64,000 bases of DNA. It comes from an uncultured Pseudomonadota bacterium (GTDB taxonomy: Bacteria; Oederibacteriota; Muellerivitia; Muellerivitales; Muellerivitaceae). Below are positions 3,139 through 42,331 of this stretch, one piece after another (position 1 is the first letter of the stretch; each line of letters starts with the position of its first letter). The notes beneath the pieces were generated by a model. The model was not told the origin of the DNA. It saw only the letters and a program-made list of their open reading frames with translations, and ran no database searches. Both the position numbers and the translations under genes were made by a program. The stretch is from assembly GCA_963843375.1 (NCBI GenBank), contig CAWJKT010000004.1, positions 64,001-128,000 on the forward strand. The letters run 5' to 3'.

Positions 3139-4775
3139 GTGCACGGGAAACATCTCATCGCAGCTGTCCTATTGATGTTGACTGCGGCGCGTGGCGTGAC
3201 GCAAGAGCATGAGCATGGGAATGGCGAGAAGCTGGGGGAGGTTCATTTCGCCACATCGTGCATCGAACCGGCGCAGAACGATTTTAATCGCGCCGTAGGC
3301 CTGCTCCATTCTTTCCAGTTCAGCCGTGCCATCGACGGATTCAACGCCGTTCTCCGAAAAGATCCTACGTGCGCAATTGCGTACTGGGGAATCGCTCTAA
3401 GCGATTGGAGCAATCCATTCGCACCGGGACAAAAAGACAAGGGTCAGTTGCAACTCGGGCGGCAGAGCGCCGAACGAGGCAAGGAGTTGGGCGCAAAGAC
3501 AGACCGCGAACGCGCCTATCTCGCGGCAGTCGGCAAGCTGTACGGCAACTTTGAAAGCACACCGCAGCAAGCGCGCCTGCTCGCCTATCGCGATGCCATG
3601 GGAGACCTTGCCGGCAAAATATCCGCAAGACCCCGAAGCGCAGATTTTCTACGCATTGGCGCTCGCGGTCGCGGAGGATCCCGGCGACAAGACCTACGCA
3701 GACCGCCTCAAGGCGGGAGCAATTCTTGAGAAATTGTTTGCACAGCAGCCAACGCATCCCGGACTCGCGCATTACTTGATCCATGCCTACGACGTGCCGG
3801 CCTTGGCGGGGCGTGCGCTGGTTGCGGCGCAGCGCTACGCGGAAATTGCACCCGATGCGCCTCACGCGCTGCACATGCCCTCGCACACATTTACCCGCCT
3901 GGGTTACTGGCAGGAGTCGATTGACAGCAACGTGGCGGCGGCGGCGGCCGCGCGGCGCCAGGGACAAACGGCCGAAGAGCTGCATGCCAGCGACTACGAG
4001 ACTTATGCCTACTTGCAAACAGGGCAGGACGAGGCGGCAGCCCGGATTGTAAGTGGCCTGCCGGAAATGGCAGCACGCTTCGATCCAAAGGCGTTGCTGA
4101 TCGGCGCCGGCCCACCCTCGGCCGGCTATTTTGCGCTCGCGGCAATCCCGGCACGATACGCCTTGGAGCGCCAGCGACTGGCAGCAGGCTGAGCGGCTGG
4201 CGCTAGTCGCGAGACGCCGTTTCCGTACGCCGATGCGATCACATGGTTCGCCCGAGGATTGGGCGCGGCGCGATTGGGACACGCTGCGGCGGCAAACAAA
4301 GCAGCGGCAGCGCTGAAGCAGATCCAGGAGCGCCTTTCGAAGGCCAACGAGCGTTACTGGGCGCAGCAGGTGGAAATTCAGGCCACTGCGGTCTCGGCAT
4401 GGACTGCGCTGACGGCGGGCAAGAACGAGGAAGCCGTGCGGCAGATGGAACTGGCAGCGGCATATGGAAGATGGGACGGAAAAAAGTGTGTTGACACCGG
4501 GTCCACTGTCCCCAGCGCGGGAACTGCTCGGCGAGATGTTGTTGGAGATGAATGAACCTGCTGAGGCATTGGTGCAATTTGAAGCAACGCTTAAGAAGGA
4601 GCCACGGCGCTTCCGATCATTATATGGAGCGGCGCACGCTGCGCAGCTCAGCGGGAGCAGAGATCTGAGTCAAAGATATTTTGGCGAACTGCTGACGGTT
4701 TGTGCGCACTCCGACAAGCCTGGAAGACCCGAGATCAAGGAAGCGCGTGAGGCGTTGGCGAAACAGAAGAGCTGA
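3139..4775 (+). CDS. Secreted TPR-like hypothetical protein, split by several frameshifts
   Basis: Signal peptide and LGEVHFATSC...LLHSF (3139 frame) continue as HPGLAHYLIHAYD, APHALHMPSHTF (3551 frame), then the 4259 and 4464 frames (TPGPLSPARELLGEMLL, EPRRFRSLYGAA). Confidence 0.75.
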
Positions 4776-4904
4776 CTCGACTGCTCGAAAGCGGCCGTTC
4801 CCGACCGTCAGCAACGAGTCACGACCGCCATCTCGGCGGAGCTTTCTCCGACTGACGGGTTTCCGGAGGTGAATCCGGCTCTTCCGACCAGAGGCAGTCT
4901 GTAC

Positions 4905-4925
4905 CGCTGGGACAATCTGGGACAG
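4905..4925 (+). repeat. 21-bp sequence CGCTGGGACAATCTGGGACAG, copy 2
   Basis: Identical to 2379-2399; immediately upstream of the att-like repeat. Confidence 0.85.
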
Positions 4926-4933
4926 TGCGGCCA

Positions 4934-5077
4934 TGACGCCGAATGACAGCGAATTACATCGCGTGACGCTAAGTGACTGTTGCCCTTGGCCCTGCCCTCG
5001 CATATCGTTGATCTGTAAGGCGCTGACCACCGTTTCATACGGCAGGGCTCACAGGTTCAAGCCGTGTACGCCCACCA
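4934..5077 (+). repeat. att-like direct repeat copy 1, ending in a degenerate 3' half of tRNA-Val(CAC) (5034-5077)
   Basis: Aligns with 26404-26548. Ends TTCATACGGCAGGGCTCACAGGTTCAAGCCGTGTACGCCCACCA (anticodon-arm remnant, T-arm GGTTCAA, CCA). Confidence 0.8.
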
Positions 5078-5275
5078 TCGAATCCAAGACTTACGACAAA
5101 TCAGCTCCGGAAGTACGGCAAAAGTACGGCATGTTCGGTCCCAGACTGCCTTGGACAAGCATGGACGGGCCTCGACACGAGGTGGTTCGGCGTTATCGCA
5201 CGCTCAAGGCCTGGTCGGAAAAGAATCCGGACCTTGCCGGTCGCTGACGGACGGAAGCTAGCCCCGATTGCGGAT

Positions 5276-5968
5276 TCACGGCGTGTAGTAGGACATCGCG
5301 TAGCCGCGTTCCTGCGCGCGGTTCACGGTGACGATTCCGGCCGCCACCATGCGGCCGTTCGGAACCAGATGCGACTCGAATTCCTGGCGGACCCCCTCCG
5401 CGTCGTCCTTAGTCTGCGCGGCCACCATCGCAGCGATTCGCTGCGTCGCCGCCCCGCACACCGCGAAGTGCACGCCCTGGCCGGCCAGATCGGTCAGCGT
5501 GGCGTCGGCATTCGCGAGGCCGGGCCCGTAACCCTTCACGTCGTAAAGATTTCGAGTCGGGGCTTCCTGCGTCTTCGGGTCCGTGAACTTTGACATGTTC
5601 GACAGGATCTTGCCGTACTTCGACCAGATCGCGTCGTCGTATCCGAAAACCGTCGCCATGTGGCGCAGGATGATGATGATTGCGAGCTGCGATGATTCGA
5701 TTCCATAGGCGCTCTTGTTGACGCCGATGTAGTTCCGCGCAAAGAACAGCGCGTGCGCAGTACCGTCCGCGGACGTCGCATCGAACACCAGGCGGTGGCG
5801 ACTCGGCAGCTCCATCCAGTCGTCGTCCTTTTCGAACACCGGCTGCCAGCGCGCAGGCTTCGCGGACGCCTGTGTTGGCAGAACAGCCGCGCCGAGCACG
5901 ACGGCCCCGGTGCTAAGGGCAGCGACCACCCTGCGACGCCCGATCGCGCGCCGATCCACTTCCGTCAT
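5276..5968 (-). CDS. Tat-exported DsrE-like sulfur-related protein
   Basis: ATG 5968 after a GGAGG RBS; twin-Arg leader GRRRVVAAL...ASA; HRLVFDA, GVHFAVC and C-terminal VAAGIVTVNRAQERGY resemble the DsrE fold. Confidence 0.65.
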   Translation of the reverse strand: MTEVDRRAIGRRRVVAALSTGAVVLGAAVLPTQASAKPARWQPVFEKDDDWMELPSRHRLVFDATSADGTAHALFFARNYIGVNKSAYGIESSQLAIIIILRHMATVFGYDDAIWSKYGKILSNMSKFTDPKTQEAPTRNLYDVKGYGPGLANADATLTDLAGQGVHFAVCGAATQRIAAMVAAQTKDDAEGVRQEFESHLVPNGRMVAAGIVTVNRAQERGYAMSYYTP

Positions 5969-27501: not shown

Positions 27502-28032
27502 ATGCGCTGCTGCGGTTTGCAAATTTGCCTATTGCTGTTGTGCTTCGGCGGTGCGCACGCCGGAGAAGTGCCGCTCGGACAACAGCTGCCAAGCATGACG
27601 CTGCACGGCCTGAACGGGCCGGCCCAGACCCTCGGGACCTTTCGTGGCCGGCCGTTGCTCATCAATGTCTGGGCCAGCTGGTGCGGGCCATGCCGGCAGG
27701 AAATGGCCTCCCTGGAGCGACTCGCCTGGCGCGACTCGGACCCGCACCTGGCCATCATCGGGATATCCACTGACGATGATCCGCAGGCGGCTGTGGCGCT
27801 CCTTCGCAGCACCGGCGCGACGATCAGTCAATTCATTGATGCGCGCCGGCAAATGGAAACCCTGCTGGGCGCCTCCAGCATACCCTTGACGGTGCTGGTG
27901 GATGCCCAGGGTCGGGTGCGGGCGCGCTACTACGGCTCGCGTGAATGGGACAGCCCGGCGGCGCTGCAGCTACTTCGCACTGCCTTGGGCGCGCACGAAT
28001 TGGGCGAGACTCGCGCGCCCGTCCGCCCATAG
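27502..28032 (+). CDS. TlpA/ResA-like periplasmic thioredoxin
   Basis: Signal peptide, LINVWASWCGPCRQEM, IPLTVLVD, GSREWDS. Confidence 0.92.
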   Translation: MRCCGLQICLLLLCFGGAHAGEVPLGQQLPSMTLHGLNGPAQTLGTFRGRPLLINVWASWCGPCRQEMASLERLAWRDSDPHLAIIGISTDDDPQAAVALLRSTGATISQFIDARRQMETLLGASSIPLTVLVDAQGRVRARYYGSREWDSPAALQLLRTALGAHELGETRAPVRP

Positions 28033-28548
28033 ACCAAAAGGCGTCGCGAGCGCGTCCTGCGGCAGTCGCAGCAGGATGTGGTGGCTCAGGGCGATGAAGC
28101 GCAGCGTCGCCAGGTCGATGGGATAGGCGTAAGTCACCACATCGGCATGCGGCGGATAGTGCAGCGCGCCCCGATCCGCCACGACAACCGGCAGCTGCTC
28201 GAGAGCCTGCAGCACGATCGCGCGGTCGTCGGCTTCGATCTGCAGCGTTCCACTGCTCGCCGGCGGTGGCGTCGACATGCGCTTATCGACGGTTGACCAG
28301 CGGTACAGCAGCAGATAGTCATGGTAATGGCCGGCCTCGTCCAACTCCAGCGCCACCATGGTCGCGTAGTCGCGGGCATAGGCGGCCACGTCGGTGCGCT
28401 CACGCGCAAACACCAGTGGGTGTGTGACCAGCAGCAGCGTGTTACCGCTTTGCGGATCCAGGATGGCGCGCGAGTCGGGGGACGGCGCATGAACGCAGCC
28501 TGAGCCCAGCAGCAGTGCGGTAAGCAGCAAGGTCCAGCGGCTGTTCAT
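27970..28548 (-). CDS. Hypothetical lipoprotein, last gene of the cytochrome operon
   Basis: MNSRWTLLLTALLLGSGC lipobox; starts 8 bp after the barrel gene stop. Confidence 0.75.
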   Translation of the reverse strand: MNSRWTLLLTALLLGSGCVHAPSPDSRAILDPQSGNTLLLVTHPLVFARERTDVAAYARDYATMVALELDEAGHYHDYLLLYRWSTVDKRMSTPPPASSGTLQIEADDRAIVLQALEQLPVVVADRGALHYPPHADVVTYAYPIDLATLRFIALSHHILLRLPQDALATPFGLWADGRASLAQFVRAQGSAK

Positions 28549-28555
28549 GGGTCTC

Positions 28556-31021
28556 TTAGAAGCGCAGCCGGTAGGATGCGGACAGGTACAGGGAGCGCTG
28601 CTGCAGCGTGCTGGGCTCGATGGCGCCGTTCAGGCTCTGCGGCTGCAGGGATTGCTGTTGCTGCTGCATCTGGTAGCCCGCCGTCAGCTCGAAAATGGAA
28701 CGCCGGCCGGTCCAGTCGGCGCGCAGCTGCGGCAGGTACAGAAGTTGCCGCCCGCCGAGCATGGGATCGGTCAGTTCCTCGACGCTCAGTCGGGGCCCCA
28801 AGCGCCAGGCACCATACACCACAAAGCGGGCGTCCCAGGAGAGCGTGGCGCTGCGCGCCTGAGGTGAATCATCCACCCGCACGCCGAAGATGTGCAGGTC
28901 GCTGGCCTGCAGCAGGCTGGCGCCGGATAACTGGAGCGAGATGTTCTTGTCCAGCCCCATGGAGCCGATGGCCTCGACACCGCCGGAGGCCGGCGTGCCG
29001 CCCAGCTGCAGGGCCGACAGGCTGGCCATGAATTGCCAGCGCGCCCCCAGCGAGCGGCTCGCCGACAGCACGAAGGTTTCGCTGGTGGCGGCCCGATCCA
29101 GCGCGAGCTGCTTGAGCTGCGAGGGGGTGTACTCGCTCGCCAATGCATTCAGATCCGCTGCGGCCTGGCCAATCAGGGCGTCGTTGAGTTCCAACAGCGG
29201 GCTGCGACGATAGTCCGCATCAAATCCCAGTACCCAGGATTGCCCGACGCGGGCATTGCCGATGAGAGTGGCCGAGTTGAGCTCCTGGAAGTCGACATCG
29301 TAGTCCACGAGCACCACTGCGGTACGGCCGGACTGGGTGTAGCGGGTTTGCAGGCCGACCGAGCGCCGATCGGTGAAGCCCTCGATGGTCTCGTTGAACA
29401 GGTAGCCGTCCAGGGACCACGCGGCACTGGGATCCCATTCCGCGCTCACGGTCGCGAAATTCTGCTGGGTGGAAAAATCGGAATACGAGGAATAGGCCGG
29501 CAGCCCGGCCGCGGCGCTGATCAGCAGATGCGGATTGAGCTGGTAGCCCAGGTACACCCCATCGAACAGACCGATGTTACCCTGCACCGCCAATGACTGG
29601 CGACCGATGCGGCCGGTCCAGCCCAGGATACGATCGGTCAGTTCGACGTAGGCGGCGGTGGTGCGATCCTGGCTGCCACCAAAGGTGGTCACGAGGTTCT
29701 GGGTGTAGCCCGCGTCCACCCGTGCCGTAAAGTCATAGCGATCGCCGCGATCACGCAGCAGCAGGTCGGTATACACCAGCGCCGCGTTGGCCGAGGTGGT
29801 GGTGGTGGTGACGCCTGCCGCCACGCTCTGATCCGTCCCGTACTGATAGGTGATCGAGGCGCTCCCGGCCATGCTCCAGTGGCTCGGGGTCGCGCGTGCG
29901 AATTCACCCGTGGAATTGGGTGCCAGGGAGGCGGCCAGCAGACTTTGCAGGCGCGCGCGCACCCGCACCGCCCCCGGCCGGTCCGGATAGCGGCGCAGGT
30001 ACTCCTCGCACTCCGCTTTGGCCTGCGCCAGCTGCCCGGCGCGCTCGCGCACCAGCCCGAGCAGTTCCTGGGCATCGGCGCGGGCCGGATATTCGGGCTG
30101 GCGCAGCAATCGGGTGAGCAGCTCCACGGCTTCCGGAAAGCGTTGCCCCGCCAATGCCGTGCGCGCATCGCGCAGCAGCTGCGCGCGCGTCTCATCGGGC
30201 AACGGCGCATCGGTCGTGACGGGCGCGGCCGCGGCCGGCACGCCGGCGCGCTCCACCACCGTCAGATCAGTCTGCTCATCGTTGATGGCCAGCCAGGCGC
30301 GCGGATAGACGGACAGTGCCGCCTGCAGCACGCGTTGCGCCTCCTGCTCGCCCGCAAAAGGCCCGACCCGCAACCGATACCAGTGCTGGTCTTCGAGGTT
30401 GATCTCGGACACGTAGGCCTGGGTTTGCAGGGCCTTGGCGGCGGCTTCCACCGCGGCTGGCGCGAAGGGCTGCTGCGAGGAGTCGAGGTTGACCGCGTAG
30501 CCCGCCGCCGCATCCGGCTGCGTCAGTAACACCCCGGGCTGGTGGTGCCGGGTGCCGATGAGGCGCACGCGCAGGCCCAGCCCGGAGGCCATGGGCGCCA
30601 TGACGAAGTCCAGCTCCCCGGTCCAGTTCAGCGTCAGGGTGACCTCGCCGGGAACCACGCCATCCACGCGCGCCCCGGTCACCAGCTCCCCGCCACCGCC
30701 GACCAGCGGCAGCTCGGGCACAAAGGCATTGAGCAGGTTGCCGCAATCCGGTCCGAGCCGCAGCGTGATGCTCGTGCTGCTGCCGTGATCGGCGGGGGAA
30801 CTGGAGATGTAGTGCACGCTGCAGGCGAACTGCACCGTCACGTCCGCATAGTCATCATGCTCGGTGGTGTCCACGAACTGCACCAGCGTGCCCGGCGTAC
30901 GCACCGGCGGTGCCGCCGCCGCGCTGGGCGCGGCGCTGAGCAGCCCGGCAAGACCCAGCGCACACCCCCACCACCACAGCGCCCGCCCCGGCCCTGCACG
31001 GCGCCTACTCGGGGCACTCAC
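28556..31021 (-). CDS. Outer-membrane beta-barrel (putative porin) with N-terminal periplasmic SPOR and TPR domains
   Basis: GTG 31021 overlaps the cytochrome stop (GTGA); signal peptide; SPOR-like WYRLRVGPF...AW; TPR-like AQELLGLVRERAGQLAQAKAECEEYLRRYP; amphipathic strands ending LYLSASYRLRF (terminal Phe). Confidence 0.82.
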   Translation of the reverse strand: MSAPSRRRAGPGRALWWWGCALGLAGLLSAAPSAAAAPPVRTPGTLVQFVDTTEHDDYADVTVQFACSVHYISSSPADHGSSTSITLRLGPDCGNLLNAFVPELPLVGGGGELVTGARVDGVVPGEVTLTLNWTGELDFVMAPMASGLGLRVRLIGTRHHQPGVLLTQPDAAAGYAVNLDSSQQPFAPAAVEAAAKALQTQAYVSEINLEDQHWYRLRVGPFAGEQEAQRVLQAALSVYPRAWLAINDEQTDLTVVERAGVPAAAAPVTTDAPLPDETRAQLLRDARTALAGQRFPEAVELLTRLLRQPEYPARADAQELLGLVRERAGQLAQAKAECEEYLRRYPDRPGAVRVRARLQSLLAASLAPNSTGEFARATPSHWSMAGSASITYQYGTDQSVAAGVTTTTTSANAALVYTDLLLRDRGDRYDFTARVDAGYTQNLVTTFGGSQDRTTAAYVELTDRILGWTGRIGRQSLAVQGNIGLFDGVYLGYQLNPHLLISAAAGLPAYSSYSDFSTQQNFATVSAEWDPSAAWSLDGYLFNETIEGFTDRRSVGLQTRYTQSGRTAVVLVDYDVDFQELNSATLIGNARVGQSWVLGFDADYRRSPLLELNDALIGQAAADLNALASEYTPSQLKQLALDRAATSETFVLSASRSLGARWQFMASLSALQLGGTPASGGVEAIGSMGLDKNISLQLSGASLLQASDLHIFGVRVDDSPQARSATLSWDARFVVYGAWRLGPRLSVEELTDPMLGGRQLLYLPQLRADWTGRRSIFELTAGYQMQQQQQSLQPQSLNGAIEPSTLQQRSLYLSASYRLRF

Positions 31022-34000
31022 TGTCGTGGACCACCGCTGGTGACCGGCCGGCGCAGCAGCGGCCGCAGCGGCTTGACCGCCGGTGCGATCGTCCAGGTCA
31101 AAGTGTTGTGGCAGGTACCGCAGTCGGCGCTGGTCAGCGGGTGCGGCACCTGCTTGCCGGTGGCGAGGCTGCCGTTGTGGCAGCTGGCGCAGGTTGCCGT
31201 CAGCTCCAGGTGGCTGAACCTCACGGGCAGCCAGCCAATCGTGCCGTGGCAGCTGTCGCATTCAGCGTGCGTCGCGACATGCTGGGCGGGCAGGCCTGCT
31301 GCGATCACGGCGTTGTGGCAGCTGCTGCAGCGGGCCGTGATGCTGCGGTGATCAAAGCGCGCCGGCAGCCAGGCGAGCGTCGTGTGGCAGTCCTGACACA
31401 GACCCGTGGTGCGGATATGGCCCGGGACCATGCCGGTGGCCAGCACGCCATTGTGGCAGCCGGCACAGTTGCTGGTCACACCCGCGTGGGACATCGGTTG
31501 CATGCGCCCCAGGGGCCTCATGCCGGCTTGGGTCGTTCTCGGCGCGGCCACGACCGCGCTCACCACACTGGGCGACTTGGCCTTCACGACCACATTGCGC
31601 ACCAGGTTGCCCCCGTCCCAGTTGTTGGTGTTGTGGCAGCTGCTGCAGTCTGAAGTGAGCTTGCTGCCGGAGTTGTGATCGCTCGGCCGCGTCGTCAGAC
31701 CGGTGACACCATAGAAGCTCAAGGCCGGGGTGACCTTGTTGTGACAGGCGTCGCAGGTCTTGCCGATGACCGCGAACATCAAGGTGTGCTTCGCCGAGGT
31801 CATGGTGGTGCCACTGAAGGAGGTGAATACCGTGCTCGTATGGCAGTCCTCACAGGGGGTGGTGCTGGTGGGGATGTGCACCGGGGACAGCACGGCGTCC
31901 TTGGGCGTGTAGTTGTTGTAGAACACCGGCGGCGTCGCATTCGGCGCCCCATGACAGCTAATGCAGCCGCTGGTGATGCCGGTATGCAGCACTGGATTGG
32001 CGGCCAGCGTGGTCGTGGAATAGTCCGCCGGTGCCGTCGTGTGGCAGACGGTGCAGGCCTGATTGCCGGGATTGGGCATGTGCCCCGCCGGCAGGGCCGT
32101 GGAATTCCAGTTGGCGGTCGTATGGCAGATGCTGCAGTCATTCGGTGCCACCATCTGGCCCGCGTTGTGGTCGGCGGGTCGGCCCTGCAGTGCAGGACTC
32201 GCTGCGCCCAGGTAGAAGCTCAGCCCGGCTTCATGGCAGGTATCGCAGGTGGTGGCCACGAAGGCATGCGTGGCTTGGGTCATGTTCATGGGCCCGAAAC
32301 TGCCCACCGCATAACTCGTGGTGGTATGGCAGGAGCCACAGCTGGTGCCGCCCAGATACGGGATGTGCGCAGGCGTCAGTACCGCATCCTTGGGGGTGAA
32401 GTTGTTGTACCAGGTCAGCGCCGTGGTGCCCCCGTGGCACTGCGCACACTCACTGCTGGTGATGCCGGTGTGCAGCACCGAGTTCGCGGCCAGCGTCGCC
32501 GTCGAATAATCCGCCGGAGCCGTGGTGTGGCAGAGGGTGCAGGCTTGATTGGCCGGATTGGGCATGTGGCCGGCCGGCAATGCGGTGCTGTTCCAGTTGG
32601 CGGTGGTGTGGCACAGGCTACAGTCGTTGGGCGCCACCATCTGCCCGGTGGTGTGATCGGCCGGCCGTCCCTGCAGGCCCGGGCTCGCCGCGCCCATGTA
32701 GAAAGTCAGACCCGCTTCGTGACAGCCATTGCAGGTGCTGCCAAGTCCCGCATGCGTCGCCTGCGTCATGTTCATCGGGTCCGAAGGTGCCGGCCGCAAA
32801 GGTGCTGGTCACATGGCAGTTGCTGCAGTCCGTGCCGGTGAATGCCGGAATGTGCGCCGGGGATCAGCACGGCCGATTTCGGATTGTCGTTGTTGTTGTA
32901 GAAGGTCAACGCGGTGGACCCGCCGTGACATTGCGCGCAACCGGTGCTGATACCGGTGTGCAGCACGGCATTGCTGGCCAAGGTGGCGTAGCTGGCGGTC
33001 GTACCGTTGATGGCGATATGGCACACCGCGCAGGCCTGGTTGCCGGGGTTGGGCATGTGGCCGGCCGGCAGCGCCGTGGTGTTCCAGTCCGTGGTCTCAT
33101 GGCACCCGGAGCAGTCGCCGGTGGCCTGCTGCGGCGTACCGCCCGAGAGGTGATCGGCCGGGCGACCCTGCAAGGCCGGGGTCGAGGCGCCCAGGTAGAA
33201 GCTCAGGCCCGCCTCATGGCAGGTGTCGCAGGTGGTGGCAACGAAGGCATGCTTGGCCGCACTCATGCCGGTCGGACCGAAGCCGCCGACGAGATAGTTG
33301 GCCGCATGGCAGGCACTGCAGTCCGTCCCGGACAGGAACGGGATGTGTGAGGGTGTGAGGACGTCCGATAAGGGGTTGTCGTTGTTGTTGTAGAAGGTCA
33401 GTGGCGCGCCGGCGCCGTGGCACTGGGCACACCCGGCGCTGATCCCGGTGTGCAGCACCGCGACGCTGGCCAGCGTGGCGTAGCTGGCCGCGGTGCTGCC
33501 GATGGCAATGTGGCAGACGGCGCAGGACTGATTGCCAGGATTGGGCATGTGTCCGGCCGGCAGCAGGTTGGTATTCCAGTCGGTGGTCTCATGGCACAGC
33601 GAGCAGTCGCCGGTCGCCTGCTGCGGCGTACCGCCCGAGAGGTGATCGGCCGGCCGGCCCTGCAAGGCCGGGGTCGAGGCGCCCATATAGAAGCTCAGGC
33701 CCGCCTCGTGACAGGTATCGCAGGTGCCGGACACGAAAACGTGCTTGGCCGCACTCATGGCGGTGGGACCGAAGCCCCCGGTGGTGTAATTGGCGCTATG
33801 ACAGGCGGCGCAGTCGGTGCCGGACAGATACGGAATGTGCGACGGCGTGAGCACGCCATCGACGGGCGTGTAATTGTTGAACCAGGTGAGTGGCGTGGTG
33901 CTGCCATGGCACAGGCCGCAGTTGCTGCTGATGCCGGTGTGCAGCGTGGCAATGGCCGCCAGCGTCGCCGGCGTGTAGTCGCTGGGCGCCGAGGCGTGGC

Positions 34001-35443
34001 ATTGTGCGCAACTGAGATTGCTCGGATTGGGCATGTGACCGAGCGGCAACGCGGTGCTGGTCCAGTCCGTGGTCTCGTGGCACACCGAACAGTCACTGCT
34101 GGCCATGCGCGTATCGGTACTGGCCAGGTGGTCCGCGGGCCGCAGCTGCAGCGGCGTGCCACTGCCCACGTAGAAGCTCTTCCCGGTGTCATGGCAGGTG
34201 TCACAGGTGCCGGAGACAAAGGCGTGCTTCGCGGCACTCATGGCGGTTGACGGGCCGAAGCCCCCGGCTTGATAGGCAGCGCCATGACAGGCACTGCAGT
34301 CCGTGCCGGCCAGCACCGGAATGTGCGGCGGCGCCAGCGGTGTGGCATGCGTCGGCGACACGCCCGAAACGGACATGGGGATATACGGGGCCGGTACCCC
34401 GGCGAAGGTCTGGCCGGCATGGCACATGAGGCAGTTGCTCACGGACAGGCCTGCATGCAGGGTCGGAATGCTGGCCACGAGCATCGTCCAGGTCTCAGCA
34501 CTGGGCACATTGCCGTGGCAGATGCCGCAGTCCACCAGCGAGGGAATCGGCGGCACGTGGTTGGTGGGCTGCCCCGACACAAAACCGCTGGAGATCTTCA
34601 CCGTGCCGCTGTGACAGGTCTGGCAGGTCTGCACCGTCATCTGGGTGTGATCGAAAGCCGAGGGCACCCAGCTGGGGGTCGCGGTGCCGATACCGGTCGT
34701 GTGGCAGTTCTCGCACAAGTTGCTGGTCGGCATGTGCGTACCCTGTTTGCCCACCGCCTTGGTGCCGTTGTGGCAGCTGTAGCAGCCGCTGGTAATGCCC
34801 GTATGGTCGAAGGTCGCGTTTGCCCAGGTGCTGGTCAGGTGGCAGTCGCCGCACTCCAGGCTGGTGGCGATGTGATTGGCGGGCTTGCCCGAAGCCTGCA
34901 CGCCGTTGTGGCAGATGATGCAGAACCCGGCCGCCGCCAGCGGAATCTGGCTGTGATCAACGATGGTGGGCGGATTCCAGCTGACGACACTGTGGCAGCT
35001 CGCACAGTTCTGGGTGGTGGCAGGATGGGTCGGGCCTTCGCCCTGGGCGGTGGTGCCGTTGTGGCAGCTGACGCAGCTGCCCAGCACCTCGACATGATCG
35101 AAGTGCACCTGCGGACGAAAGGAATTGGTGTCATGGCAGGCGACGCAGTTGTTGGAACTGGCGATGTGACTGCGGCTCTTCGGTGTGGCGTTGAACTGCG
35201 AGCCGCTCGTGTGGCAGGTGAGCGCAGTCCCGTGGCGTGCCCTTGAAAATGGCATTGAGGTGGCAGGATTCGCACGGCAGGTCGCGATGCACACCGTCGA
35301 GTTCGAAACCGGTCGTCAGATGATCGAAGGGCACCGTGATGGGTGGCGCGCCGCCCGCCGCCCGCAGCGGCGGTGCCGCCAGCAGCGCCACCACCAGCAG
35401 CACCGTCGCGATCCATCCGCTCCTGATGGTGCGATGTCATCAT
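31018..35443 (-). CDS. Giant multiheme c-type cytochrome, ~1470 aa, ~46 CxxCH (several frameshifts)
   Basis: Joined frames 35131-35403, 32772-35294, 32618-32812 (extended upstream: HIPAFTGTDCSNCH) and 31018-32799. Hand count 46 CxxCH, one of which spans a frameshift; Sec-type signal LLVVALLAAPPLRA. Confidence 0.9.
31620..34330 (-). repeat. Intragenic tandem repeat: five full and one partial ~160-aa five-heme modules
   Basis: Recurring HIP..CxxCH-..FGP..HxF..CDTCH-..RPADH..DCSxCH-..W..LPxGHMPNP.N..CxxCH-..LHTGI..CxxCH-..NN. Confidence 0.9.
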
Positions 35444-35449
35444 CTGGGC

Positions 35450-37030
35450 CTACTGGATCCGCGCGCCCTTCCAGGAATCGCGTCGAATGGCAGCGCTCGC
35501 AGTGCACACCGTACTGTCCGAGATGCCGGTCATCCTTCTGATGGCAGGCGTCGCACTGCTGCGACATCTTGACCGTGCCCGGCGGGTCGCGGTGGCAGTC
35601 CGCGCATTGCAGCTTGGCGTGCGCTCCGAGCAGCGGGAAATGTGCCTCCCTGGCGTGATCGAAGCTCCACAGCGCCCAGCCGTTCGCCGAATGGCAGCCT
35701 TCGCACTTGTTGCCCAGGCCGCCCTTGTGCACGTCATCGTGTGCGTGGCAGGCGACGCAGGCGGAGGCCGCGGCGCTGAAGGCCAGCGTGGCATGGCACT
35801 GCGCACAGCTGACGATGCGGTGCAGACCCAGCAACGGGAAGCTGGTCACATCGTGATCGAATACCACATCGGCTCGCCAGCCGTTCTGCCCGTGACAGTC
35901 ACCGCAGCCGCCCTTGAGCTTGGCGCCGTGCGGATCCTCGCTGCGATGGCAGTCGGCGCAGTCCTGGCCGAGCTTCTGGGTCGCGACGGCCGCGGTATGG
36001 CAGGCTGTCGCAGGCGAGGTGCGCGTGCGCGCCCAGCAACGCAAATTGGTGCCGCCCGGTGTGATCGTAGTTGTCCACCTGCCAGTGACTGTTGTCGTGG
36101 CAGGTCCTCGCACTGGCTGCCGAAGCGCAGCGCATGCGCATCGTCGGCGCGATGGCAGCCCGCGCAGTCCTTCGGGATCTTGTCCTTGTAGTTGCCGCTG
36201 CGGTGACAGGCCAGGCAGTCGATCTGCGCAGTGCGCACCCAGCAGCGCATAGCCGGTCTCCTTCAGGTGATCGAACTTCGCCGCTCTTCCACTGCTTGGT
36301 CACATGACAGCGTCCGCAATCCGAGCCGCGGCTGCCACGATGCACATCATCGGTGGCGTGGCAGCCGACGCAGCTCGCTCGGTGTCGGCTTGTAGCGTCC
36401 GCCGATATGGCAGGCATCGCACGTCAGGGCCGTGTGGGCGCCGGTCAGTGCGAAGCGGGTCTTGCCGTGATCAAATGTGCCGCCGCTCCAGTCATTGCTC
36501 GAATGGCACTCGCTGCAGGACTGGGTGAACTGTCCACGATGCGACATCGTCCGCCTTGTGGCAGCCGGCGCAGGTGTCGGCCACGGCGCGCCAGGCCGCC
36601 TGCGGCTTGTGGCAGCTCTCGCAGGGCAGCGCGGCATGCGCACCTTGCAGGCGAAAAGTCAGTCAGCTGGTGATCGAAGTGCGCACGATCCAGCTGCACG
36701 ATGTCGGCGGTGCGCCCCTTGTGCTCGGTGTGGCAGGCGCGGCATTCGCCGGCGCCGGCATTCGCCATGCGGCCATGGTAGCCGCGGTGCGTACGCAACA
36801 TCGGCGGCAATCTGCTTGTGGCAGTCCAGGCACAGGGAGGTCTGAGTGCGCGCGTTGGTGCGGTCATGGCAAGCTGGCGCAGGTGGTCTCCAGCTTTGCG
36901 TGAGCGCTTGCGCACCTTCCCCGGCATCAGCAAGGTCTCCACCGATGCCGCACCCGCAGCGCCCGCACCCAGGCACAACAGCAGTAATCCACCCGGCTCC
37001 CAGCATCTTGAGAATCGAGCCGCGCCGCAT
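35450..37030 (-). CDS. Periplasmic multiheme c-type cytochrome, ~21 CxxCH in 3-heme repeats (many frameshifts)
   Basis: Signal ...AGAASVETLLMPG; repeated FDH..F.L.GAH..CxxCH..CxxCH..D.H.G..CxxCH across frames 36445, 36347, 35899, 35846 and 35316; ends WKGARIQ* at 35450. Confidence 0.88.
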
Positions 37031-37039
37031 GTTTGGCCG

Positions 37040-37923
37040 TCAGTAGATGTTGACCGCGACCACATGCACGATTCCTGCAACCAGGAGCATGAAGAACAGC
37101 GGGATGTGAAGGACGTGCCAGAAGGAGAACAGGCGCGCATAGAGACGGTACTCGGCGGTGCGGCGCCCCGCCTCCAGGCGCCGGTCGGCATAGCGGCGCG
37201 CCAGGGCCGCCAGGCGGTCCGCATGGCGCACGACGATGCGCCCCTCCTGGGCTTTGCGCCACCCGCAACGCCCGGGCGATCTCCCGGTACACCAGCCAGC
37301 GGGCAATGAGGATCCGCAAGGCGCCGGTGAACAGGTGCGGCACGCGCGCCAGCGGCGCCCGCGGTGGCTCGATGTACCGCTTGCTCGACGCGCGCGATGA
37401 CATCCAGCACCCCGGGCAGGAAGGCGATGGAGGTGCTTTGCGCGCGCAGCCGTTCGCCCACCGATCTGAGCTGCTCCAGGGTGCTCTCATGGCCGTCCAT
37501 GTGGGCGTGCAGGCGGGTATAGATGTAGCGGCCCACCACGCCGCTGCCGGCGACCAGTAACATGCAAATCAGGGCGACATTGCTGTTGGTGGCGCCGAAA
37601 CTGAAGTTGGCGTGAAACAGCACCAGCAGCGGACCGGTCACGCCGAGCACCATGTGGATCTGGAACCAGCGCCGGAATGGTTCCGATCCAGCGCAGCCAG
37701 GCAGCCCGCTTGCGGGCCGAATAGATCAGCAGCGCCAGCATCATGCAGCCACCGGCGATGCCAAGCGCATAGCCCACACCGTGCTGCGGGGAGATGTAGC
37801 GCTCCAGGTGGGCATGCCACCCCAAGTAGACCAGCCCGGCGACCACCGCACACCAGATCAACGGCCAGTGCAGCCGCAGGCGCGACGGCTGAGGCCCGCC
37901 AGGCTGGCGGCTTCGACGCTCAC
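37040..37923 (-). CDS. Conserved inner-membrane protein with TM histidines (cytochrome b-like), frameshifted
   Basis: GYALGIAGGCMM..LIYSARKR, (H)MVLGVTGPLLVLFHANF, SGVVGRYIY, RLFSFWHVLHIPLFFML..GIVHVVAV; GTG overlaps the upstream stop. Confidence 0.78.
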
Positions 37924-38780
37924 GGGATCACCTTGTCGATCACGATCTTCACACGGCGGCGATCGTGCGGATTGATGACGGCACTCGTGCCCTGCAGGTC
38001 CCCTGCGGTGGCCAGCGGCTGGCCGCTCGGCGAGATGCGCGCCTCGATCGTGACCCGTCCGGCGTTCGAGAGCGTGCGTCCCGGCAGCATCGACTCGCTG
38101 TCGTCCAGAGCAAAGCTCAAAGGCCAGGTGCCGACACTGCCGCGGTACACGGCGACCGGTGCCCCCGGGCTGTCCACTGACTTCGCCACGATGAATATCG
38201 TCGTGCCGGCGGGGGCACGCGACGCCAGGGCCGGAGCCAGCGCCACCTCGCCCGTGACACCGGTTGCCGCAGGCGCACTCGAGTCACCCGGCGCGCCGGC
38301 CGGCGGCGCCTTCAGCGCGGGCAGCTGATGCGCCCGCGCCTGCGCGGCCTGCTGCGGCCGGCCCAGAAAATCATAGGACTTGGCGAGCAGCTCCCAGTCA
38401 TCGTCGCTGCCGCCGCTTTTGGCCAGCCGGGCTTGCAGCGCCGCAATCGCCGCGTCCATGGAACCAGCACGCCCCGCATCCTTGGCGCTGCCCGCGGCGG
38501 CAGGCGCCGCAACACCGCGGCCCATGGCATCAGCCAAGTCGGCCCAGGAGTCACCCGTCGCTGCGCTGCTGACCGCGGCCGCAGCGGACGGCGGCGGCGC
38601 GGGTGTGCCGCCGTAGTTGAGACCCAAGTCTATGGCCATGACGATGAGCGCCGCCGCCCCGGCGGGCCACGGCAGCGCCGGAAGGGTCGCCAGTCGCGGA
38701 ATCGTCCGTAGCCAGGGCAGCAGCAAAATGACGGCCGCCAGCGTGAATACCCCGCCGGATATGAAGGACAGTACCGACAC
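37920..38780 (-). CDS. CcmI/CycH-like cytochrome c maturation chaperone (TM, TPR, C-terminal Ig-like domain)
   Basis: Two N-terminal TMs, WELLAKSYDFLGR TPR, IFIVAK..GAPVAV..WPLSFALDDSESMLPGRTLS..VTIEARISPSG..GDLQG. Confidence 0.85.
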   Translation of the reverse strand: MSVLSFISGGVFTLAAVILLLPWLRTIPRLATLPALPWPAGAAALIVMAIDLGLNYGGTPAPPPSAAAAVSSAATGDSWADLADAMGRGVAAPAAAGSAKDAGRAGSMDAAIAALQARLAKSGGSDDDWELLAKSYDFLGRPQQAAQARAHQLPALKAPPAGAPGDSSAPAATGVTGEVALAPALASRAPAGTTIFIVAKSVDSPGAPVAVYRGSVGTWPLSFALDDSESMLPGRTLSNAGRVTIEARISPSGQPLATAGDLQGTSAVINPHDRRRVKIVIDKVIP

Positions 38781-38948
38781 TCGATGCGCTCCTCAGCAGA
38801 CCGTGCGCCACGGTCCCGATTCCAGGATCCGGATGCAAACAACGCGCTCGTGCGCTTTGCTAAGTAAAGTTGATTCTAATGATCGCCCAACAATTTGACA
38901 CATGTATGTGAATCACGACACTGATCCTGGATGCAGCGGCCGGCGGTA

Positions 38949-38964
38949 TGTGATTTGATTCGCA
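38949..38964. promoter_or_regulatory. CRP/FNR-superfamily-like box in the divergent promoter
   Basis: TGTGA-TTTGAT-TCGCA, one mismatch to TGTGA-N6-TCACA, in an AT-rich intergenic gap. Confidence 0.45.
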
Positions 38965-39015
38965 GTATCCTGGCGACCCGGTTTTTACTCTAATAGGCCC
39001 GCCCTCACGGTCCGA

Positions 39016-40335
39016 ATGAGCCCGCACATGGACTTCTGGTCATTGGTCCTTTACGGACTACCCCTGGCGGCCATCCTGGCTGTCTACATTTGGCGACAGC
39101 AGCGCACGCATCACCAGAATCGGCGTGTGCACGAAGAAACGGTAGCGGCCGGCTTGACCGAGCCTGCCTCCTTGCATCCAAGCATTGATCCGAGCAAATG
39201 TCTGGGCTGCGGCGCCTGCGTGAAGGCGTGCCCCGAGCAGCCGCATCACACGGTGCTCGGGCTGATCGATGGCAAGGCGGTGTTGGTAGGCCCGACCGAT
39301 TGCATCGGTCACGGCGCCTGCAAGACCGTGTGCCCCTTCGATGCCATCACCCTGGTGCTGGGCACCGAGCGGCGCGGCGTGGATATTCCCGTTCTCAAGC
39401 CCAACTTTGAATCCAATGTGCCGGGGATTTATGTCGCCGGTGAACTCGGCGGCATGGGTCTGATCAAGAACGCGCTGACGCAGGGCCGTCAGGCGCTGGA
39501 GTCGATCGCCAAGGAGCTGAAGCCCCAGCCCGGGGTGCTGGACGTACTCATCGTGGGCGCCGGCCCCGCGGGCCTGGCTGCGTCCCTGGCTGCCAAGCAA
39601 CTGGGACTGAATTATCGGACCGTTGAGCAGGAAGCCCTGGGCGGCGCGGTCTTCCAGTATCCGCGCGGCAAGCTGGTGATGACCGCGCCGGTGGAGCTGC
39701 CGATCATCGGCAAGATTCAGTTCCGCAATACGACCAAGGAGGAACTGCTGAAGTTCTGGACCCAGGCCTGCCAGGGCAATGGCCTGAACATCCGCTACAA
39801 GGAGCGCGTGGAGACCGTCCAGCAGCGCGATGGGTGTTCCAGGTGAAGACCACGCGGCGAGCGTACCAGGCTTCACGCGTCCTGCTGGCCATCGGCCGGC
39901 GCGGCACACCGCGCAAGCTGGGCGTACCCGGCGAGGAGCTGCCCAAAGTGGTGTACCGGCTTGATTGACCCGGAGCAGTACCAGGGACGACGTGTCGTGG
40001 TGGTCGGTGGCGGTGACAGTGCGCTGGAGGCCGCGGCCAGCATCGCCGAGCTGGGCACCTGTGCGGTGATCCTGTCGTATCGTGGCGAAGCCTTCCAGCG
40101 CGCCAAGCAGCGCAATCGCCAGCGCGTGCAGGAGGCCAGCGCCCTGGGCCGACCTCAAGGTACTGATGGGTTCGGCCATCCAGGAGATCCAGCCGCAGGC
40201 CGTGGTACTCAAACAGGCCGAAAAGTCATGGCCGTCGCCAACGATGCCGTGATCGTGAGCGCCGGGGGAGTATTGCCGAACGACTTCCTGCGCGCCATCG
40301 GCATCGAAGTGGAAACCAAGTACGGCACGGCATGA
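39016..40335 (+). CDS. Membrane-anchored 2x[4Fe-4S] ferredoxin fused to a thioredoxin-reductase-like FAD/NAD(P) oxidoreductase (frameshifts ~39840, ~40150)
   Basis: N-terminal TM; CLGCGACVKACP and CIGHGACKTVCP; ESNVPGIYVAGELGG; IVGAGPAG; AIGRRGTPRKL; VVGGGDSALE. Confidence 0.88.
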
Positions 40336-42331
40336 TGAACCCGCGCCTGCACCGGACCGTCCGTGATGCCCGCCTCGGCCTGCTGCTGGGCCTCATCATG
40401 GGGCTGGGAAACCCGGGCGCCCGCGCAGCGACACCGCGCGCGCGTGGATCCGCTGGAGCCGGCGCGCAGCGCCCTGCGCACCCTGCAGTTCAGCCGCGCC
40501 ATGCAGCTGCTGAGGCCGCCGGCACGGCGGGCAATCCCGAGGCGCAATACCTGCTCGGTCTCATGTATCTGAATGGCGTGGGCATCGCGGCCGATCCCGC
40601 GCGATCACGCGCGCTGCTGCAGTCCGCCGCCGAACACGGTCAGGGCGCGGCCGCCTACGTGCTGGCCAGTGAACTGGCGCGCGATCCCGCGCGCACCGCC
40701 CGAGGCGGCGCGGCGCTGGCTGGAACACTCGGCGCAGCTGGGCTACGGGCGTGCCGTAGAGGTGTTGAAGGCAGGCGGCGTACTGCTCGCCCGTGAAGAC
40801 CTGGGTGTCTCGGATCCGGCGCTGCGCCCGGCGTGGGTGATCGCCTGCATCCGCCGCAATGACACGGCGGAGCTCAAGCGCCTGGGCACCGACAGCCTCT
40901 CGGCGCGGGATGCGTTCGGACGCGGATCGCTCGATTACGCCGTCCAAGCCGACGCAGTGGCCGCGGCGACCATGCTGCTGCAGCTGGGTGCGGACGTTCA
41001 CGCAGCGGACAGCTTCGGCACGACGGCGCTGATGCTCGCCGCCGAACGCTCCGACACGCCCTGCTGGACCTGCTGCTGCAGCATGGTGCGGACCTGCAGG
41101 CCGTGGATGCCGAACATCGCACCGCGCTGTTCTATGCCGCGCGCGCCAATCAGCCCCAGGCGATCACGGCGCTGCATGCGGCCGGCGCGGCGCTGGACGC
41201 CCGCGACGAACGTGGCTACAACGCACTGGATGCCGCACTGGCGGTCGGGCGCCACGGGCGCCGCCCAGGCCCTGCGCGATGACGGCCTGCAGGCGCATGT
41301 GGCCGCGACGGCGCCCGCGCGCAGCGGCAAATTTGATCCTACCCGTCCGGGTGACATCTATCCGAATTGGCCCGTGCTGGCCCTCGCCGTTGCCCGCAAC
41401 GACACCAGCGCCATCCGGCAGCTGCTGGATACCGGCGCCCTGCCAACCTGCGACTGCCGGCAGGGCGAGTCGCTGCTGCAGATCGCCGTGGATGCACGCG
41501 CCTTGAACGCCCTGCCGTTGCTGGGCACACGGGGCTCCATCACGGCTACCGATCACGCCGGGCACACCGCGCTGTGGCTGGCGGCCGCCCGTGGCGATCT
41601 CGCCGTGATTCGGGCCCTGCTCGCCTCAGGCGTGGCCGCCGACACGCACGGTGCCGAGGAAACCACCCCGTTGCTCGCGGCGTTGCACAGCTCCCACGCC
41701 GAGGCGGCGCAGGCCTTGCTGGAGGCCGGTGCCAATCAGGAGGCCATCGATTCGCAAGGCCGCCGGCCGCTGATGATCGCCTGCGCAACCCGGCAGCTGG
41801 CGCTGGTGCAGTGGCTGCTGGCCCATCACGTCCAGGTGGATGCGCAGGATGCCCAGCGTCGCACCGCGCTGTGGCATTCCGTCATCTTCGGCTCCGCGGC
41901 CGAGGTGAATGCACTGCTGACGGCCGGTGCGCGGGAGGACGTCGGCGGACGCACAGGGCCTGACGGTGCTGCACGCTGCCGCCGCTCAAAGTGACGCCGC
42001 GGTCGTACAAGCGCTGCTGGCCCCCAACACCAGCCTGAATCAGCGCAGCGTCAGCGGCGATACGCCGCTGCTGATCGCCGCGGCCAGGGGCCACGCCGAA
42101 CTGGTGCAAGAACTGCTGAAAATGCGTCCGGACCTGGATGTCCAGAACCGCGCCGGTGATACCGCGCTGATCGCCGCTGCGCGCGGGGGCTATGCAGCCG
42201 TGTGCCAGCTGTTGCTCGCGGCGGGAACCAATACTGCCCTGCGAAACGCTGCTGGCGTCACCGCCGCCGAGGTGGCTCAGGGCCGAGGCTTCACGTCGCT
42301 GGCCCGCGATCTCACCAGCAAGACTCTCTAA
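40332..42331 (+). CDS. Exported Sel1-repeat plus ankyrin-repeat protein (frameshifted)
   Basis: Signal-like N-terminus, GNPEAQYLLGLMYLNG (Sel1), many G.T.L..A ankyrin motifs (GTTALMLAA, GHTALWLAA, GDTPLLIAA, GDTALIAAA); start overlaps the upstream stop. Confidence 0.85.

Follow-up and report, generated by a model that had tools for sequence, protein, structure and literature searches.

The DNA analysed here (the window) is a stretch of 64,000 nucleotides, positions 64,001 to 128,000 of contig CAWJKT010000004.1 (contig C4 below) in assembly GCA_963843375.1 of an uncultured bacterium. Its minus strand carries a giant multiheme cytochrome c gene at 31021..35443, which begins with an ATG at 35443, is closed by a stop codon at 31018-31020 and, after removal of four single extra bases, encodes 1473 amino acids with 46 CxxCH heme-binding motifs. 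We consider it likely that the whole gene encodes a Sec-exported, non-lipidated c-type cytochrome whose 46 covalent hemes are likely bis-His ligated, and that this protein is the predicted extracellular large cytochrome of a PCC3-type gene cluster from a Steroidobacteraceae-like soil gammaproteobacterium. An earlier reading of the letters of the window (the original prediction) had described it as a single-chain wire built by expansion of a five-heme unit.

As assembled, the gene lies in three frames with stops and four breaks. All four frame shifts run in the same direction, and each break therefore holds one surplus base; the gene was reconstructed by a script that read through and skipped one base per break. 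The read-through contained 92 Cys and 97 His, all 92 Cys were inside CxxCH motifs with none elsewhere, and the count of 46 motifs first made on the raw letters was retained on the corrected sequence. Frame break 1 is one extra base in the signal peptide region (35426, placed by frame analysis). Frame break 2 is one extra base within heme motif 2 (35223), which becomes C-L-T-C-H when the base is removed; the script read-through at this point deviates by two residues from the correct removal, and a CxxCH is obtained either way. Frame break 3 is an extra C in a CCCC run at the boundary of the third and fourth five-heme modules (M3 and M4; 32859), and frame break 4 is an extra base in M4, between GFGP and MNMTQ (32776). 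The original prediction had flagged stops near 32770-32860 alone. Two breaks do lie there and are assembly errors on the evidence below, but the two at 35426 and 35223 had been missed.

Four public soil-metagenome runs from one study (X1 to X4) contain DNA of the giant-gene region. Compared with window positions 31000-35500, the only indels in their contigs are single-letter gaps, six in all, although X1 possibly comes from the window's own sample and the contig depths are just 3-6. These gaps are at 32776 (X1, X2, X3), 32859 (X1, X2), 32863 (X4, a more distant strain, instead of 32859), 35223 (X1, X2, X3), 35426 (X1) and 35480 (X1), and the last falls in the 3' end of the upstream cytochrome gene, which is also frame-shifted in the window. 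An intact relative, P0061, is 95% identical and has 1472 residues and 46 motifs. Because contigs of other runs lack the four bases and this intact relative exists, the giant gene is, on sequence comparison, whole and its frame breaks are assembly errors.

If the breaks were real, the locus would hold a decaying pseudogene or two to three smaller cytochromes, as the stops and the three frames of the window as assembled suggest. We consider this very improbable. At each of the four breaks, contigs from a set of three to four other runs are one base shorter, and the rpoB gene of the same assembly (G000:C1:296987-299991) is likewise broken, into three pieces in three frames. The giant gene is one long open frame in 26 related species assemblies, with an intact 46-motif open reading frame in 16 related species genomes, and several other long-read assemblies are broken elsewhere in the gene. 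The GC content at third codon positions is 0.84 in both large pieces. The window's assembly is 80% complete by marker genes, in 32 contigs, and indel errors probably account for this low estimate. The number of modules is not an assembly artefact either, because X1 contigs span every module boundary and five is also the module count of the nearest relatives (L012, 90% identical). In one X2 contig (depth 2.4), position 32913 is connected back to 31964 by way of 27 other letters, which we read as a repeat or strain artefact and not as another module number. The proposal of a single chain rather than two proteins is therefore upheld, and neither real stops nor an artefactual module number agreed with the X1-X4 contigs and the relatives.

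Motif spacing and alignment of the repeated units divided the protein into regions that are all encoded on the minus strand. A Sec-type signal peptide of about 29 amino acids (35356..35443), which ends in PPLRA before AGGAPP and contains no Cys, was placed from the read-through and the N-termini of relatives. It is followed by an N-terminal 12-heme domain (34332..35355) made largely of di-heme units of about 46 amino acids, with a motif spacing of about 23. Five complete five-heme modules of 162-164 amino acids then start at residues 371, 533, 697, 861 and 1023: M1 (residues 371-532; 33846..34331), M2 (533-696; 33354..33845), M3 (697-860; 32861..33353), with frame break 3 in its last codons, M4 (861-1022; 32374..32860), which contains frame break 4, and M5 (1023-1185; 31885..32373). 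A partial sixth module with three hemes (1186-1275; 31615..31884) leads into a heme-free linker rich in Val, Ala and Pro (about 1276-1320; 31480..31614), which lies in the 60-residue interval before the last six hemes. The C-terminal domain (31021..31479) carries these six hemes at an exact spacing of 23 residues.

M1 to M5 are 56-84% identical to one another, as expected of the modular expansion that had been proposed, and part of the N-terminal domain aligns with the C-terminal domain at 42% identity (147 amino acids, E 9e-32), in line with the likeness between the first and last hemes noted earlier. The layout of 12 hemes, five modules and a partial sixth, linker and six hemes was confirmed throughout by motif spacing. 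The protein has 32 amino acids per heme. Hundreds of database proteins share this architecture, which puts the heme-motif pattern far beyond chance.

The original prediction held that the length of the chain is tuned by repeat number. A search for relatives found 559 proteins of at least 1426 amino acids, of which the best 120 were listed; forms with fewer than three modules are outside this searched length. The CxxCH counts of these best 120 cluster at 46, 56, 66, 76 and 86. A profile of the module found five full modules in 51 of the listed proteins, six in 3, seven in 47, eight in 1, nine in 14, eleven in 3 and thirteen in 1. Among 26 intact genes of species genomes, two had 3 modules and 36 motifs, 16 had 5 and 46, six had 7 and 55-56, one had 13 and 86, and one was N-terminally cut. 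Length is thus set by repeat number, because relatives differ by the count of five-heme modules, and the proposed survey of copy number across genomes gave relatives with 3, 5, 7, 9, 11 or 13 modules and 36-86 hemes. Among the 120 listed proteins, 116 have an odd number of full modules, as do 25 of the 26 intact species-genome genes, a regularity for which we found no explanation.

A tree of 70 modules indicates that positional types (first, second/third-like, fourth-like and last) are older than the species, with lineage-specific expansions in addition. One speculative reading, which we regard as doubtful, is that the protein is a length-polymorphic heme ruler in which the structural unit is a pair of modules, or in which both end domains are returned to the same side, for example as a two-lane hairpin docking at a barrel. 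If this were true, reach from the cell surface could be readable from the genome and could be tuned by recombination between modules. On the module tree, the 5-module proteins can be written as m1+2+2 and two 7-module proteins as m1+3+3. A hairpin with equal module types was rejected as a general rule, as L042 (7 modules) and L036 (13 modules) are unequal.

At least one His is present in 45 of the 46 intervals preceding a CxxCH, and exactly one in 41 of them. This spare His lies 7-13 residues ahead of the first Cys at 45 of the 46 motifs. An alignment of 125 two-module rows, taken from 26 genomes, served to judge conservation within the module. Invariant in each module are its five CxxCH motifs and five other His, which in the first module are H3, H35, H68, H99 and H132. 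One Met is invariant as well. The suggestion of about one spare His per heme is therefore well founded, both over the whole chain and within the module. The count of conserved His fits bis-His ligation without being proof of it.

The same residues bear on whether the protein, instead of carrying electrons, might be a multiheme enzyme that catalyses a reaction, like the nitrite, sulfite or hydroxylamine oxidoreductases. Such enzymes share generic Pfam families that match the giant cytochrome. However, every Cys is in a standard CxxCH, with no CxxCK and no odd motif, the invariant spare His equal the heme number of the module and leave no obvious open site, and family searches found no catalytic domain or family match. 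We give this explanation almost no weight.

The signal peptide has no lipobox, as had been noted, since there is no Cys outside the 46 motifs. MtrC of Shewanella is a 10-heme lipoprotein, whereas the giant cytochrome has 46 hemes and lacks a lipobox Cys of the MtrC/OmcA type; the statement that it is not lipid-anchored as MtrC is can stand. Among the 120 listed relatives, 89 also have no Cys before the first motif. The other 31 have a Cys in the signal peptide region at varying positions (for example P0096 and P0104), and that of P0096 (...LAAC...) resembles a standard lipobox. A minority of the family may therefore be lipid-anchored.

The protein shares features with several known multiheme families. 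The MtrCAB system, in which a heme chain across the envelope is formed by a multiheme cytochrome in the periplasm, a barrel and a cytochrome at the surface, is similar in kind. Pfam family PF22113, the pentaheme domains II/IV of MtrC/MtrF, matches an 814-residue piece with a summed score of 68.4 bits (cut-off 30). Single modules score 22-25.6 bits each, under the cut-off, and the N-terminal domain alone is unlisted. Membership of the MtrC/OmcA family is not supported, as there is no lipobox and the PF22113 match is reached only in sum and is sub-threshold for each module. Membership of the MtrA/DmsE family (TIGR03508) was rejected, since its cut-off of 192.2 bits lies far above the scores of the two pieces, 61 and 37.6 bits. 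TIGR04257, the c7-type triheme 'nanowire' cytochromes, gives 45.7 bits on the first piece (cut-off 40), with no single stretch significant. Geobacter GSU1996, which we take to be an example of this modular c7-type triheme kind, and its like are single chains made of tandem small multiheme units, as is the giant cytochrome. The unit here has five hemes in 162 amino acids and not three hemes, however, and its copy number varies among close relatives.

The giant gene is part of a conserved cluster, which we compared across 47 related loci. The order is a CcmI-like gene, a membrane protein gene, a 21-heme cytochrome gene, the giant cytochrome gene, a gene for a protein with TPR and SPOR regions and a gene for a small lipoprotein, and it is kept in 37-43 of the 47 loci. 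All are on the minus strand of the window. The first gene (37923..38792; 38 of 47 loci) encodes a CcmI/CycH-like protein, recognised by its Ig_CycH domain. The second (37043..37927; 39 loci) is frame-broken in the window and encodes an inner-membrane protein in which WX3HX13H, present twice, and SGXXG are visible even in the broken copy. Its intact orthologue P0121 has 291 amino acids and five hydrophobic segments, with WX3HX13H at residues 84 and 266, on the third and fifth segments, and SGXXG at 125, on the fourth. The third gene (35450..37087), directly upstream of the giant gene, encodes a multiheme cytochrome with about 21 CxxCH, counted by eye over three frames. It is badly frame-broken in the window, with an extra base at 35480, is intact in 30 loci and is matched in 43. 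The membrane protein gene and the 21-heme gene (together 35450-37927) each run across three frames, with dense single-base indels in the assembly.

Downstream of the giant gene lies a gene for an 808-residue protein with SPOR and TPR regions (28559..30982; 41 of 47 loci, with a length near 810 residues), a presumed outer-membrane barrel (porin). The C-terminal half of this protein, about 450 residues, has no family match and ends in ...YRLRF, and a crude alternation scan found 17 amphipathic segments after residue 350, some of them overlapping. A search of its profile against the PDB returned weak TPR and SPOR rows only. The last gene (27973..28629; 37 loci) encodes a small conserved protein whose orthologue P0122 starts with a lipoprotein-like signal. 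A divergent gene on the plus strand (38959..40332; 39 loci) encodes a flavoprotein with 4Fe-4S and pyridine-nucleotide-disulfide oxidoreductase domains and is frame-broken in the window; in L021 it lies at 4086-5393 (minus). The eight loci without it either miss the upstream DNA or are the distant L057. After the flavoprotein gene comes a gene for a Sel1 protein with many ankyrin repeats, frame-broken in the window (40167-42328, plus) and encoding 658 amino acids in L021 (2110-4086, minus).

This cluster corresponds to published descriptions of PCC3. The PCC3 inner-membrane protein has about 300 amino acids and five helices, with SGXXG in helix 4 and WX3HX13H in helices 3 and 5 (PMC5566968), and P0121, with 291 residues, five segments and both types of motif, agrees with this description. 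Periplasmic PCC3 cytochromes have a median of 21 hemes (PMC5566968), those of Gallionellaceae have 21, 24 or 27 (PMC10734462), and the gene upstream of the giant gene has 21 CxxCH. According to He et al. 2017 (PMC5566968), the large PCC3 cytochromes are built from repeats, their median heme number is 34, and single examples carry 63 and 85. With 46 motifs, 32 amino acids per heme and five-heme repeats the giant cytochrome has the same features, its extracellular location being a prediction. In Sideroxydans lithotrophicus ES-1 the order is inner-membrane protein Slit_1446, periplasmic cytochrome Slit_1447, extracellular cytochrome Slit_1448 and porin Slit_1449 (PMC12016527), and the gene order on the minus strand of the window and in the related loci is identical to Slit_1446-1449.

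Because the membrane-protein motifs, the 21-heme count and the gene order equal those of published PCC3, we file the cluster as PCC3-type, with the giant gene as its putative large cytochrome and the barrel as presumed. The original prediction that the protein is larger than the PCC3 outer cytochromes fails for this reason, as it would itself be a PCC3-type large cytochrome and published ones reach up to 85 hemes. The likeness to PCC3 consists of the shared gene set and order, the membrane-protein motifs, a cytochrome of about 21 hemes and a very large, repeat-built cytochrome with few amino acids per heme. It extends to a proteobacterial host and an environment where redox cycling of iron or humic matter is plausible. 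Three features differ from PCC3 as described. The giant cytochrome here consists of 162-residue five-heme modules between two similar MtrA-like end domains, the outer-membrane protein has SPOR and TPR regions, and the constant neighbours are the CcmI-like gene, the small lipoprotein and the divergent Fe-S flavoprotein.

The heme ligation, location, partners, direction of electron flow and substrate that we infer would give the following route. All hemes would be low-spin, bis-His ligated and closely packed, and the chain would carry or store electrons and perform no catalysis. The five-helix membrane protein, which probably binds two hemes b, would form the end of the route at the cytoplasmic membrane and might be fed by the Fe-S flavoprotein. 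After the PCC3 model, electrons would move between the cytoplasmic membrane and the surface through the 21-heme cytochrome and the presumed outer-membrane barrel. The closely packed hemes of the giant cytochrome would then link this path, in either direction, with a partner that is insoluble or polymeric, for example iron minerals or humic matter, and the number of five-heme modules would set the reach or the capacity of this chain. MtrA-type packing corresponds to about 100 Å for ten hemes (PMC5566968), and hemes packed in this way would give the chain a reach of some 45 nm. The giant cytochrome would have to be exported. A type II secretin was found above the cut-off in all four carrier genomes tested, which would permit export and is no demonstration of it.

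Several observations speak against an extracellular wire. The giant cytochrome has no lipid anchor, and nothing in its sequence indicates attachment to the surface. A plain linear chain would be broken by the heme-free linker ahead of the last six hemes, except if the domain folds back. Structure prediction for two to three modules had been suggested, and an AlphaFold2 model of two modules was made from the 125-row alignment; it is mostly coil and of low confidence (mean pLDDT 65.8, pTM 0.48), and no match to a solved structure was obtained. Foldseek with this poor model returned a single PDB row (E 4.8), the non-significant one of the Mtr complex structure 6r2q, and among 48,161 chains compared by VIA-align none reached Z >= 2. 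The module profile found nothing below E 0.4 among PDB sequences, and the ESM Atlas yielded generic cytochrome c3/c7 clusters only. For the 808-residue protein, family and PDB searches matched no barrel family or solved relative. We know of no experiment on any PCC3 cluster, which has been described from genomes. The large ES-1 cytochrome, Slit_1448, was undetected in the proteome table of PMC12016527.

The main rival to an extracellular wire is a giant cytochrome confined to the periplasm, where it would mainly store electrons, as a capacitor, or relay them across the periplasm. The signal is of the Sec type only, with no lipobox, and both termini resemble MtrA/DmsE-type decahemes, although below the cut-off (61 and 37.6 against 192.2 bits). 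The idea of a capacitor has been raised for PCC3 cytochromes in PMC10734462. A separate 21-heme cytochrome, of the type published as periplasmic, is however already encoded in the cluster, and an extended chain of 46-86 hemes would be far longer than the periplasm is wide. The type II secretin in the carriers leaves a way out of the cell open. We therefore regard a periplasmic location as unlikely and prefer the extracellular large cytochrome.

The taxonomy of the bin does not describe the host of this cluster. At 54-55 kb of the window (about 118-119 kb of contig C4) the GC content drops sharply from about 61-66% to about 50%. The contig is a mosaic, with 60-66% GC at 1-118 kb, about 50% at 120-460 kb, like most other contigs, and about 70% at 460-564 kb. 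The giant gene was found in none of 30 other genomes of the bin's GTDB family, one of them a same-genus genome of 99% completeness. Left of the junction, cydA shares 67-79% identity with that of cytochrome carriers but 42% with that of the same-genus genome, and a TonB receptor shares 76% with carrier genomes. Right of the junction, one gene is 94% identical to the same-genus genome, and rpoB on contig C1 is 97% identical to it as against 56-62% to carriers. As no tRNA and no integrase-like domain were found at 50-60 kb of the window, a chimeric join is favoured over a genomic island, though it is not proved. The cluster most likely reached contig C4 in this way, and because the contig is likely chimeric, the bin's taxonomy is inapplicable to it.

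By the names on related records, the cytochrome cluster is assigned to a Steroidobacteraceae-like gammaproteobacterium. In an alignment scan of genome contigs with the membrane protein, the best 80 of 285 relatives were all Steroidobacter-like or unclassified metagenome-assembled genomes, and a protein search with P0121 gave close relatives only among the matches listed. In the carriers' own family, modules were matched at E <= 1e-20 in 27 of 301 sampled genomes, a count that includes the unpublished genome G334. Steroidobacter, Agromonas and Amphritea were not found in the searched supplements of PMC5566968; its carrier tables, which were outside the search, may bear on this.

PCC3 clusters are widespread and possibly a major route by which bacteria of soil, peat and sediment exchange electrons with minerals or humic matter. 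The giant cytochrome belongs to this already described kind. Its family and the five-heme module were not found in the literature searched (Creative Commons PMC papers and bioRxiv), where no paper on a Steroidobacteraceae giant-cytochrome family turned up. Of its features, only the series of odd module numbers merits follow-up. The family is a natural series with the same end domains and partners and with 3 to 13 modules of identical type, and it would permit a direct test of whether the length of a heme chain sets reach, rate or storage. The locus also carries two warnings for annotation. Indel errors of long-read assemblies split genes of this sort, and a contig that joins the DNA of two unrelated organisms does not allow the cytochrome trait to be credited to the bin's taxon.

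Against a library of 1.84 billion proteins, the module profile matched 322 clusters (formed at 50% identity), of which 90 reached E <= 1e-30. One metagenome protein, P0176, has 3949 amino acids, 120 CxxCH and 40 stretches that match the five-heme module profile. It far exceeds the 85-heme record given in PMC5566968, although proteins with over 100 motifs are cited in a 2025 preprint.

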